Of a stretch of DNA of 64,000 nt, positions 10,217 through 40,744 are shown piece by piece (the first letter of the stretch is position 1; each line of letters starts with the position of its first letter). Below the pieces are notes generated by a model. That model ran no database searches. It was not told the origin of the DNA and saw only the letters and a program-made list of their open reading frames with translations. The stretch lies in NCBI GenBank assembly GCA_965223865.1, contig OZ245020.1, positions 1,760,001 through 1,824,000 of the forward strand, read 5' to 3'. This DNA comes from Nitrosarchaeum sp. Lineage in GTDB: Archaea; Thermoproteota; Nitrososphaeria; Nitrososphaerales; Nitrosopumilaceae. A program made the translations under genes and the position numbers.

Positions 10217-11326
10217 TGTCAGAGGATTGTAGAAATTATCACGTTCCTCGGCTTGATATCCAATTTGATGAATTGCATTCACAATGATTTTATCGGTAAG
10301 CTCAGTTGAACGTGCACCAGTGCAAGATACAACTTCTTCGCCAATAAGGGTTCCACCAAAATCATCAGCACCATATTGAAGTGCCAGTTGTGCCATCCCA
10401 ATGCCATTAGTAAGCCACGAGGACTGAATATGAGGAATTAATCCATCAAAAATTAATCTGGAAATTGCAATCATTTTTAGTAATTGGATACCTCCCGTAC
10501 CATACTCCACCAAGTCTTCTTTTTGTATCAGAGTATTGTTTGGCTCAAAGTTCCAAGGAATAAATGCCATAAATCCTCCTGTCTTTTGTTGTAACTTTAC
10601 AATTTTAAAAAAATGCTCAACAATATCGTTGTTATTTTCAACATGACCATACATCATTGTTGCAGATGCAGGCAAACCAATATCGTGTGCTTCTTCCATG
10701 ATTCTTATCCAATCATCACTTGAGATTTTTTTTGGACTAATAACATCTTTAACAGAGTCAACAAGAATTTCAGCTCCTGCTCCTGGTATAGATTGCAATC
10801 CAGCTTCTTTAAGTCGAGACAGAATTTCTTTAGTTGAAGATTTTTCTACTTTAGCAATCATATCAATTTCTGAAGTTGATAATCCATGTATTCCAATTTG
10901 TGGGAATTTTTCATGAATTGTTTTAAAGGCATCTTCATAGTATTCAATTTTCAGATTGGGGTTATGTCCACCTTGAATCAGAACCTGTCTTATTTTAAAC
11001 ATCTCCCAAGCAGTCTTTACTCTTGATTCAATTTGGTCTAGTGTCAGAGTGTAAGCATCTTCTGCTCCAGGAGAACGATAAAATGCACAGAATTTGCAAT
11101 CAGTAATACAGACATTAGTATAATTCAAAATAATGTTATTGACAAAAGATGCTTTTTTTCCAAATTGTTTTCTTGTCAGATATCCAGAGGCCAATCCCAT
11201 CAAATGAACATCATTGGATTCTAATAATCTAAGACAATCTTCTTGACTAGGTCTTTGTCCATTTAGAGAATTTTCAAGAATATCTCCAATGTCACTTTTG
11301 TAAAGCTGCTCGGTAGTTTGACTCAA
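10208..11326 (-). CDS. mqnC: Cyclic dehypoxanthine futalosine synthase (radical SAM, MqnC/CofH family)
   Basis: NYTNVCITDCKFCAF, QGG.NP, PGAGAEIL, ATMM.GH and GADDFGG. Confidence 0.85.
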   Translation of the reverse strand: MSQTTEQLYKSDIGDILENSLNGQRPSQEDCLRLLESNDVHLMGLASGYLTRKQFGKKASFVNNIILNYTNVCITDCKFCAFYRSPGAEDAYTLTLDQIESRVKTAWEMFKIRQVLIQGGHNPNLKIEYYEDAFKTIHEKFPQIGIHGLSTSEIDMIAKVEKSSTKEILSRLKEAGLQSIPGAGAEILVDSVKDVISPKKISSDDWIRIMEEAHDIGLPASATMMYGHVENNNDIVEHFFKIVKLQQKTGGFMAFIPWNFEPNNTLIQKEDLVEYGTGGIQLLKMIAISRLIFDGLIPHIQSSWLTNGIGMAQLALQYGADDFGGTLIGEEVVSCTGARSTELTDKIIVNAIHQIGYQAEERDNFYNPLTLL

Positions 11327-34987: not shown

Positions 34988-35599
34988 TTACTTGATATTA
35001 TCTAAAATAGAAAGACTCATCAAATTAGTCATTATCAAACCTTTTCTATTAACATCTCGCCTTGTTTTTTCACAATATTTCTTTACACTTTGATGACTCT
35101 TTTCACTTGCTACTTCAATAATTACAATATTATCAGCATAAGGAAAAGTAAATTTGGATGGGATTTTACAAAAAGTGTCCATATAACCTAGTCCGGCAAC
35201 ATAGATTTTATCTCGCTTTAAGAGAAGATTTGCAATTTCTTGCAGGTCCTCATCAGATTCTGCATATTCTAAATAATAAATTGAAATAAAATTTGTGTCT
35301 CCTTGGAACTCTCTCTCAAATAGATCATCTTTTACATTGAAGACAAATGATGTCTTTTCTTGATTGTATTTTTTTAGATCTTGTGTAATATTATATCCAT
35401 CCTTGAATTTTGCCAAGAGGTAATGATTTGTAGAGTCCGAAAAGTAAGGTTTGCTTTCGCCAGAAAAAGTACCGGTTACAAAATATAATTTTTCAATATT
35501 TTCGGATTGCAACCATTTATCTTTTAATTCAACAGATTCGTGGTTATGAAGATAAGAAGCACACACATAACCTGAAAAAGCTAGTTCGAGTTTATACAC
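34988..35599 (-). CDS. Hypothetical protein
   Basis: 203-aa ORF; start uncertain. Confidence 0.65.
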   Translation of the reverse strand: MYKLELAFSGYVCASYLHNHESVELKDKWLQSENIEKLYFVTGTFSGESKPYFSDSTNHYLLAKFKDGYNITQDLKKYNQEKTSFVFNVKDDLFEREFQGDTNFISIYYLEYAESDEDLQEIANLLLKRDKIYVAGLGYMDTFCKIPSKFTFPYADNIVIIEVASEKSHQSVKKYCEKTRRDVNRKGLIMTNLMSLSILDNIK

Positions 35600-35710
35600 A
35601 GTGCCAATTCTTGAAAAATACTATTTATGCCTATTTGAACTAGGTCTGATCTGCTTGAAAATTTGATATCTTCGATAGTTTTTTAATACTAGAATGTTTC
35701 GAAATTTTGT

Positions 35711-35836
35711 CCCAAGCTAGCTCAGCCTGGTAGAGCTTCCGGCTGTAGTTGTCGGCTTTGATGGCTGACCGAATAACAGCATATCAGGCATACAGAAACC
35801 GGGTTGTCGAAGGTTCAATTCCTTCGCTTGGGACCA
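35711..35836 (+). tRNA. tRNA-Tyr(GTA) with 49-nt intron (35749-35797) at 37/38, encoded CCA
   Basis: CCCAAGC/GCTTGGG acceptor stem and TCCGG-CT-GTA-G[intron]A-CCGGG. Intron TACAG pairs with CTGTA (BHB helix). Confidence 0.95.
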
Positions 35837-35929
35837 CAAGCCTTTGAATTTATTTAAACATTAGAAATAAAAAATGAATTAATTTAAGAAAACAAAAATT
35901 ACTCTTAAATTATAAAAAATATCTTTTGC

Positions 35930-36121
35930 CTATGCTGATTTTTTGACTTTTTGAGCAGCTGGTCCTTTCTTACCTTCGCCTACTTCGAACTCAACTTTAT
36001 CGCCTTCATTGATGAATCCATCAACATCTGATTTGTGAACGAATAGATCGTCACCAGATTCTCTTTCGATAAAACCAAAGCCTTTTGTACGGTTGAACCA
36101 TTTTACTGTGCCTTGTTCCAT
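35930..36121 (-). CDS. csp: Cold-shock protein
   Basis: [16 protein letters not shown] and DLFVH (RNP1/RNP2); start at 36121. Confidence 0.95.
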
Positions 36122-40477: not shown

Positions 40478-40744
40478 TTGCAGGAGGTAGGCGAAATAAT
40501 GCACCTAGCCGGTAGTGGCAGAGTAATTATTCAACTATCAAACAAATTAGTTGAAGGGCAAATTCTCTGTGACGAGAAGGGAACTAGAATTGCAAAAGTA
40601 ATGGAATTAATTGGTCCAGTAAAAAGACCGTTTGCATCAGCAACTCCATTAACAAATAACATCAAAAAATACATTGGCAAAAGTGTTTTCGCAACTGAAT
40701 ATTCTCCTGCTAAAATACAAAAAAATAGGAGAAGAAAAAATTGA
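40478..40744 (+). CDS. gar1: H/ACA RNP protein Gar1
   Basis: IAKV.E.IGPV.RPFA; upstream of tfb as usual in archaea. Confidence 0.85.
   Translation: MQEVGEIMHLAGSGRVIIQLSNKLVEGQILCDEKGTRIAKVMELIGPVKRPFASATPLTNNIKKYIGKSVFATEYSPAKIQKNRRRKN

Follow-up and report, generated by a model that had tools for sequence, protein, structure and literature searches.

Introns interrupt the tRNA for tyrosine more often than any other tRNA, and the reason for which they are retained is an old question. We take it up here for a tRNA-Tyr(GUA) gene of a Nitrosarchaeum sp., which lies in a stretch of 64,000 nucleotides (nt) of contig OZ245020.1 (positions 1,760,001 to 1,824,000 of the forward strand), called the window below and used for all coordinates that carry no other label. 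An earlier note on this DNA had proposed that the intron encodes a guide for pseudouridylation of U35 of its own tRNA; what, then, does the intron carry, and what could it do to the precursor before splicing? Judging from related sequences, the intron carries a cis-antisense module of deep conservation, and a covarying helix joins it to the D-loop of the same tRNA. We read the precursor as bistable: a bulge-helix-bulge (BHB) intron with a covarying hairpin and an antisense module that pairs with the D-loop, whose second fold is a putative checkpoint before splicing. We put the probability of this reading at roughly 60%.

The tRNA-Tyr intron and its complement in the D-loop

The gene, with an encoded CCA, occupies 35711-35836 on the + strand, as do all its parts described here, with the 5' exon at 35711-35748 and the 3' exon at 35798-35833; in the numbering used here C1 is 35711, G15 is 35725, U35 is 35746, G37 is 35748, and A38 is 35798. 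The Rfam tRNA model matches 35711-35833 with 47.4 bits and a long insertion in the anticodon loop, and ARAGORN, set to permit introns, gives tRNA-Tyr(gta) interrupted by 49 nt of intron after position 37. The sequence, ARAGORN, and the related introns all place this canonical intron at 35749-35797, between G37 and A38; the range of 35741-35798 given in the earlier note covers the intron plus G30-G37 and A38 and is thus wider than the intron proper, and the letters that it quoted are all present. When the anticodon arm and the intron are folded together, CUGUA pairs with UACAG, and two 3-nt bulges surround a helix of 4 base pairs (bp) between C32-U35 (35743-35746) and ACAG (35792-35795). The 5' bulge is A36-G37-U (35747-35749), the 3' bulge is A-A-A38 (35796-35798), and a spacer AU (35790-35791) precedes ACAG. 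This central helix is 94.9% paired across the 73 distinct sequences of our class-level alignment (A1), and the genome has two genes for the splicing endonuclease EndA (PF01974, 101.6 and 84.4 bits). The intron is a canonical archaeal BHB intron of tRNA-Tyr(GUA), and its cleavage is predicted.

A 127-nt query found matches in 38 of 41 genomes of relatives, 173 of 201 of the order, 147 of 151 of the class (one of them, G273, unpublished), and 208 of 251 of the phylum. From the 241 loci fetched, 161 were candidate tRNA-Tyr sites (L001-L170 minus nine, L031-L037, L129, and L130), and our script parsed 138 of these into 129 distinct sequences. The phylum-level alignment (A2) holds 106 distinct sequences from the 138 parsed loci; left out were 9 identical ones, 17 in which a further intron separates the D arm from the anticodon stem, 5 whose end was mis-parsed, and L158. 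The plan of the intron is near-universal: 1-2 nt, a hairpin (hairpin 1), a variable linker, CAGC, one variable base, a block of 8-9 nt, 0-2 nt, ACA(G), and 2 nt. In the window, the variable single-stranded linker of the alignments is CGAAUAA (35770-35776).

The 3' half of the intron contains a 13-nt cis-antisense module, CAGC-N-UAYYRGGC, in which UAYYRGGC is the reverse complement of D-loop residues G15-A21. In the window, the 8-nt anti-D element UAUCAGGC (35782-35789) begins one base after CAGC and is complementary to A21...G15 of the D-loop, G15-C16-C17-U17a-G18-G19-U20-A21 (35725-35732). Over the 138 parsed loci, the D-loop haplotypes match the 8-mers of their own introns. In most lineages the D-loop AGCCUGGUAG is found with the intron block UAYYRGGC or UGCCAGGC. 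The D-loop AGCCUGGCAG goes with UGYYAGGC in family f23 and with UGUUCAGGC in f10, AGCCUGGAAG with UUCCAGGC in f41 and in locus L212 of f50, and AGCUUGGAAG with UUCCAAGC in f29. At single loci, AGCUUGGCAG is matched by UGCCAAGC (L106) and AACCUGGUAG by UACCAGGU (L113), while AGCUUGGUAG occurs with UGCCAAGC or UAYCAAGC (L167, L090, L095, L215, L216).

The covariation is consistent with a helix between these two strands. In A1, the whole tested structure is 89.0% paired, as against 24-50% when the partners are slid, and in A2 the anti-D:D-loop helix is paired in 85.6% of 1055 cells, as against 28-55% when the partners are slid by 1-3 columns. Its core pairs, A21-U excepted, hold in 95-104 of about 105 cells of A2. 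Seventeen cells are changed on both sides: C17-G to U-A in 4, U20-A to C-G in 6 and to A-U in another 6, and G15-C to A-U in 1. With the caution that kinship among the sequences inflates the shuffle tests, none of 500 shuffles reaches the observed value on any measure in A1, none of 500 reaches the number of doubly changed cells or the covariation score in A2, and 14 of 500 reach the number of pairs with a double change. Further compensated cases occur in loci outside the alignments (L090, L095, L070, L075, L212, L215, L216). Because compensations occur in at least nine families, with three different states at position 20, we regard the base pairing of the anti-D element with G15-A21 of the tRNA's own D-loop as real.

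The element is absent in L125 and L170, and two tRNA-Tyr genes outside the parsed set (L180, L241) have unrelated introns. One or two extra tRNA-Tyr introns occur in many relatives (L026, L030, L029, L086, L028, L058, and others), within the D arm (past G22/A23), the anticodon stem (around 29-31), or the T loop; in all of these relatives it is the canonical intron that keeps the antisense module. The other six intron-containing tRNAs of the genome have no comparable anti-D element; the Ser-GGA tRNA has a 6-bp UUACCA match, which is equalled in 16 of 300 shuffles. In the passages of full-text literature covered by our searches, with subscription journals outside their scope, neither a helix of an intron with the D-loop nor an H/ACA-like element acting in cis from a tRNA-Tyr intron is described.

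An alternative fold of the precursor

Directly upstream of the anti-D element, CAGC (35777-35780) is the complement of G31-C32-U33-G34 (35742-35745), which precedes U35 (35746), the proposed target. The base that follows, A35781, lies opposite G22 or G30 and is variable, with C in most lineages. The earlier note had recognized this complementarity, and the alignments bear it out, with CAGC:G31-G34 paired in 99.8% of 418 cells; on this conservation and complementarity, CAGC probably pairs with G31-G34. Two other partners of CAGC were rejected. The 3' strand of the D stem (G24-C25-U26) is not the partner because the change of U26 to G26 is uncompensated, and the GGCUG in the 3' strand of hairpin 1 is not a conserved partner of CAGC(C), as many lineages are without GCUG (GGCUAAC, GCCGAGG). 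CAGC itself is missing in L051/052, L164/165, L162, and L169.

The spacing of 15 nt from the start of CAGC to the start of ACA (35792-35794), also pointed out earlier, is true in the window and occurs in 94 of the 129 distinct introns, with 14 nt in 11, 16 in 5, and 13 in 5, so that 115 fall within 13-16 nt; the rest are one artefact and 13 without a value. When the intron is shuffled with the BHB strand fixed, CAGC stands 14-16 nt before ACA in 0.9% of the shuffles and anywhere in the intron in 11.3%. This ACA does not hold up as an independent motif. It complements U33-G34-U35 as part of the 3' strand of the BHB, and because U33, the anticodon GUA, and a canonical BHB together force ACA at this place, it is no independent evidence in the window sequence. 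ACA is missing in L156, L168, L162, and L137.

If the anti-D element pairs with positions 15-21 and CAGC with 31-34, the two would form one long interrupted helix, which we call conformer II. This fold would melt the D stem and the anticodon stem and free the ACAG strand, and the BHB would therefore be dissolved; conformer I, the cloverleaf with the BHB, and conformer II would be mutually exclusive. In conformer II, U35 would be the first unpaired base atop the helix, and a single-stranded ACA would lie 15 nt downstream on the other strand. With the acceptor and T arms kept, the window sequence gives -37.1 kcal/mol for conformer I (-39.4 with A36-U) and -39.7 for conformer II, so that by nearest-neighbour energies the two are predicted to be about iso-energetic. 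The suspicion of the earlier note that a guide-side fold competes with the BHB therefore proves right in our models, in which a fold that uses CAGC excludes the BHB. We suggest that the alternative fold would act as a maturation checkpoint, keeping the precursor from the L-shape and from the splicing endonuclease, and that the checkpoint would be lifted after a step at the anticodon, most plausibly the formation of pseudouridine-35.

Several points weigh against this bistable reading. The pairing of the anti-D element with the D-loop is deduced from comparative sequence only, and the function as a checkpoint before splicing is something that we infer. At the edge of the helix, A21-U holds in 88 of 105 cells of A2 and G22-N in 81 of 105; L161 retains a C opposite A15, uncompensated; and for the window sequence alone, a full 8/8 complement of the D-loop arises in 2.0% of shuffled introns. 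Both sides of CAGC:G31-G34 are nearly invariant, and what this helix shows is thus conservation without covariation. From A2, RNAalifold recovers no stems but the D stem and the anticodon stem, and the computed minimum fold of the window sequence (-47.1 kcal/mol) is neither conformer, for which reasons the energies are only a rough guide. Lastly, the T-loop occupies the D-loop in a folded tRNA body, and the anti-D:D-loop helix would therefore need a precursor that is not L-shaped.

A competing account is that this is an ordinary BHB intron without any role for an alternative fold, in which the conserved 3' half aids the endonuclease or the folding of the intron, or in which the excised intron acts in trans on D-loops. 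The BHB is canonical, EndA alpha and beta are both encoded, archaeal EndA is known to require the BHB alone, and RNAalifold recovers cloverleaf stems only, all of which is in keeping with such an account. Covariation with the tRNA's own D-loop in several lineages is unexpected for an element that folds only locally, however, and a role in trans on other tRNAs would not follow the changes of the tRNA-Tyr D-loop. A local mini-hairpin GCC-UAYYR-GGC was rejected as the cause of the conservation, since it is 68.7% paired, no better than shuffles, and is broken in the clade of the window (GCA..GGC). We therefore consider an ordinary intron improbable.

Among the expression runs, which are available as assembled Logan contigs, the size-fractionated metatranscriptome run X10 contains a 148-nt contig (depth 113) that spans 35707-35834 with the intron included. 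It carries adapter-like, mutually complementary loose ends on both sides, and one substitution and one inserted base relative to the window show it to be from a close relative. The contig hints weakly at an abundant precursor RNA with its ends trimmed and the intron still in place. No exon-exon contig across the intron is present among the assembled contigs, and runs X7 and X18 gave no contig at this gene; both results are uninformative on splicing.

We note two further pairings in this region. In the subclade of the window, a loop insertion GAU makes UGAUGGCUG complementary to CAGC-A-UAUCA in the fold of the anticodon arm with the intron (35758-35786); the pairing of the two may give this subclade a third fold, with the antisense module masked. 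In L019, L047, and L050, a change from U to C favors it at the expense of the pairing with the D-loop. A helix UGUC/GGCA adjoining the BHB (h') is a candidate as well; it is in competition with hairpin 1, which covaries, and its partner GG is invariant.

Hairpin 1 and the route to pseudouridine-35

Near the 5' end of the intron, the stem strands GUCGGCU (35751-35757) and GGCUGAC (35763-35769) enclose a loop UUGAU (35758-35762). This is the hairpin that the earlier note had described as capped by a GA/GA motif like that of a kink-loop (K-loop), and on which it had built a model in which an apical K-loop bound by L7Ae, CAGC, and ACA together make an H/ACA guide contained in the intron. In A1, changes on both sides occur in 7 of 8 pairs of hairpin 1, which is a covarying plain hairpin. 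The letters of the supposed 3' GA are inside this Watson-Crick stem and covary as its members, the G position pairing as C-G in 29, U-A in 23, and U.G in 16 sequences of A1, and the A position as U-A in 58 and C-G in 8. The 7-bp stem is computed at -9.6 kcal/mol, compared with -2.7 for the 4-bp C-stem that a K-loop needs, a difference of about 7 kcal/mol in favor of the plain stem. The loop is free to vary among the relatives (CU, UUUA, UGA, UUUU, CAUC) and outside the subclade occurs without GA (CU, UUUA, UUUU, CAUC).

We scanned for K-loop-like layouts with a C-stem of at least 3 bp, a bulge of 3-5 nt, GA, 2-10 nt, and GA. Such a layout is present in 13 of 125 distinct introns, 10 of which belong to the window's own subclade, always with a bulge of 4-5 nt instead of 3; the remaining three are from unrelated lineages and have it at another position. 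In favor of the model, the window does contain GAU-GGC-UGA with a possible 4-bp C-stem, the layout recurs in nine further distinct introns of the subclade, and the linkers CCGA, CCAA, CUGA, and UCGA all pair with UYGG. Every one of these linker changes is a transition opposite G or U, however, and they are therefore uninformative on pairing, and three members of the subclade (L019, L047, L050) have CUAA in place of CUGA. A lower stem is absent within the intron, where 35781-35791 finds no partner; only the D-loop of the tRNA can give it a helix of such length. Nor is there a conserved K-turn (kink-turn) or K-loop in an upper stem 5-6 bp above a pocket. The pocket itself is not two-sided, the strand 3' of U35-A36 running directly into hairpin 1 and leaving CAGC(C) as the only element, on the 3' side, with no 5' guide strand. 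No Rfam H/ACA family is among the 12 matches up to E 10 over 35400-36100. Of the features that the earlier note proposed to compare across tRNA-Tyr introns, CAGC and its spacing to ACA are conserved and the GA/GA loop is not. The apical K-loop not being conserved, L7Ae binding would therefore not be conserved either. We conclude from the alignments that a K-loop lies outside the conserved design and that L7Ae binding, still conceivable in the window's subclade, has nothing to speak for it there; the intron-contained guide as originally drawn is very unlikely.

A box C/D guide was also rejected. Such a guide, of 10-12 nt, ends 5 nt upstream of box D or D' in an RNA with C and D boxes plus C'/D'. 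UGAUGG and CUGA adjoin each other, in the window's subclade only, and no CUGA follows the antisense module; weak C/D matches in Rfam fall outside the tRNA-Tyr gene.

The anti-D:D-loop helix would supply the lower stem that the earlier model lacks, and a different arrangement can be drawn around it, in which Cbf5, Nop10, and Gar1 would make the putative pseudouridine-35 on conformer II without a trans guide and without L7Ae, after which the BHB would refold and splicing follow. The D-loop:anti-D helix (8-9 bp) would be the lower stem, CAGC(C) with G(30)31-G34 would be stacked on it as the 3'-guide/substrate helix, the ACA 1-2 nt after the lower stem would be bound by the PUA domain of Cbf5, and U35 would sit at the top of the helix about 15 nt away. 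The pre-tRNA-Tyr of Thermoproteota would then guide its own pseudouridylation as a self-contained, K-turn-less chimera of substrate and guide. This cis Cbf5 route to pseudouridine-35 is unproven, and we hold it to be rather unlikely, if attractive, and more probable than the K-loop model.

What speaks for it begins with the spacing, CAGC standing 13-16 nt from ACA in 115 of 129 introns as given above. The distance of about 14-16 nt between ACA and a target-facing position is thus present, and it is confounded, since ACA is the BHB strand in most introns. Where the working BHB strand lies further 3', as in UUACAU...AACAGUA of family f15, 31 of 34 introns retain an ACA within 0-2 nt of the end of the anti-D element, and L156, L168, and L162 have lost it. 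The genome has genes for Cbf5, Nop10, Gar1, and L7Ae. Precedents are the trans H/ACA RNA of Sulfolobales that makes pseudouridine-35 on pre-tRNA-Tyr across the intron, and the action of Cbf5 without a guide on uridines inside atypical H/ACA RNAs, both according to passages of one source (PMC11077068).

The rules for archaeal H/ACA RNAs, as laid out in sections of Muller 2009 (PMC2651775), are a two-sided pocket with a K-turn 5-6 bp above it, a target U and an ACA that are 14 nt apart, and a stable 3'-guide duplex. Measured against them, the proposed device is without a 5' guide strand and a second substrate helix, its guide helix has only 4-5 bp, and a K-turn or K-loop is absent in 112 of the 125 distinct introns. 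The BHB dictates the ACA of most introns, and the exceptions named above lack ACA or CAGC altogether. U35 also lies in a good consensus for the stand-alone synthase Pus7 (G-C-U-G-U-A-G), and the BHB may itself present U35 much as the D stem presents U13.

The earlier note had also asked for a check of the genome for Pus7/TruD. The gene is present in the genome (398 amino acids, G000:C1:954301-955437, outside the window; L031 1477-2673) and in 214 of the 251 genomes of the phylum sample, which counts against the guides proposed here. The protein has GGRIK in motif IIIa and G-L-K-D-A-S in motif II, the catalytic Asp being followed by Ala-Ser instead of the Arg-His or Lys-Arg of active enzymes, a point in favor of the cis route. 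The same substitution is noted for N. maritimus and C. symbiosum in a passage of Muller 2009, and that passage of the paper reports no trans H/ACA guide for U35 in these two species, the window's genome itself not having been searched (PMC2651775). In the phylum sample, no Pus7/TruD was found in f29 (0 of 3 genomes), f33 (0 of 12), f41 (0 of 3), f47 (0 of 2), or f50 (0 of 3), and f36 has it in 1 of 10, so that these six families together are without a homologue in 32 of 33 genomes; none was found in the single genomes of f22, f23, and f28 either. These Pus7-poor families and the f22, f23, and f28 genomes keep the anti-D/ACA module, and CAGC too except in the f22 genome, and Cbf5 was found in 4 of 5 tested genomes of the Pus7-poor families. 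The association of the motif with Pus7 loss may come from a small number of independent events, however, and is not significant at the family level (rough estimate about 0.08). The sampling of motif-less lineages is biased as well. BLAST for tRNA-Tyr in Sulfolobales-like and other Pus7-positive families gave mostly tRNA-Phe, Ile, Met, Lys, and Thr matches, with L180 and L241 (the two with unrelated introns) and L236 (with the full motif) as the only tRNA-Tyr genes, and the motif frequency in Pus7-positive families therefore carries a sampling bias.

Some neighboring features and other tRNA calls are recorded here. The Gar1 gene lies in the window at 40481-40693 (+), with 32.5 bits to PF04410, about 4.7 kb downstream of tRNA-Tyr, which is probably a coincidence. 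At 10431-10510 (-), ARAGORN calls a tRNA-Phe with the unusual anticodon AAA, which may be a mis-call or an intron-containing gene. Elsewhere in the genome (G000:C1:297493-297868), with introns allowed, it calls a "tRNA-SeC" with a 278-nt intron, most likely falsely. L126 (G237) is a tRNA-Phe(GAA) whose 26-nt intron contains a hairpin GGCC-UGAU-GGCC unrelated to the tRNA-Tyr intron; ARAGORN mis-reads it as tRNA-Phe(aaa) with a 5-nt intron.

Related systems and the meaning of the intron

With the canonical archaeal BHB intron at 37/38, the intron described here shares the position, the two 3-nt bulges around the 4-bp C32-U35:ACAG helix, and the two EndA genes. It differs in what stands between the 5' bulge and the central helix, namely a covarying hairpin and the 13-nt antisense module, which complements the D-loop and G31-G34.

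Euryarchaeal pre-tRNA-Trp introns carry C, D', C', and D boxes and guide 2'-O-methylation, giving Cm34 and Um39. As in the tRNA-Tyr intron, an intron element is complementary to the tRNA's own anticodon arm, the guide fold excludes the BHB, and modification would precede splicing, as described in part of one source (PMC4090602). In the window, by contrast, UGAUGG and CUGA stand side by side with no guide between them, and only the subclade has them.

The trans H/ACA small RNAs Sso1 and sR115 of Sulfolobales and Aeropyrum resemble the proposed device in their target, U35, in a 3' guide that pairs with the 5' strand of the anticodon stem-loop, in an ACA about 14 nt from the target, and in acting on the intron-containing precursor, on the evidence of sections of two papers (PMC2651775, PMC11077068). 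In those accounts each is an RNA by itself, with its own lower stem, a two-sided pocket, and a K-turn 5-6 bp above the pocket, whereas the window's intron would act in cis, without a conserved K-turn and without a 5' guide, and its "lower stem" would use the tRNA's D-loop. Cbf5 also has guide-independent substrates, among which parts of two papers list tRNA U55, 23S U2603/2607, and uridines in atypical H/ACA RNAs (PMC6138745, PMC11077068). In these, as described there, the target U is just past the end of a helix, a 3' single-stranded tail lies at a set distance, and L7Ae is unneeded, and the predicted conformer II would likewise be a helix of 13-14 layers with U35 at its end and an ACA tail. 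Their target uridines are in T-loop-like loops; here U35 is followed by A-G-U-U and a hairpin, and the loop is not T-loop-like.

Eukaryotic intron-dependent formation of pseudouridine-35 by Pus7 is similar in that it concerns a tRNA-Tyr intron and that U35 is paired with the intron in the precursor, and a Pus7 gene is present here as well; pairing with the D-loop is not described there. The yeast tRNA-Tyr intron, according to a passage in one report, has an effect on m1A58, which is distal from the intron (PMC12168002).

With its covariation throughout an archaeal phylum, the helix between intron and D-loop would add a new type of long-range contact to those of tRNA precursors, and it implies a precursor designed to stay out of the L-shape for a while. 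If Cbf5 does use the alternative fold, which we consider doubtful, the intron of tRNA-Tyr would be the first cis-acting, intron-borne guide for pseudouridylation and would link stand-alone, guided, and guide-independent synthesis of pseudouridine. Self-guiding would then explain how whole families could lose Pus7. It would also provide an origin for the tRNA-specific H/ACA RNAs of Sulfolobales, whose trans guide sR115/Sso1 could descend from such an intron, set free.

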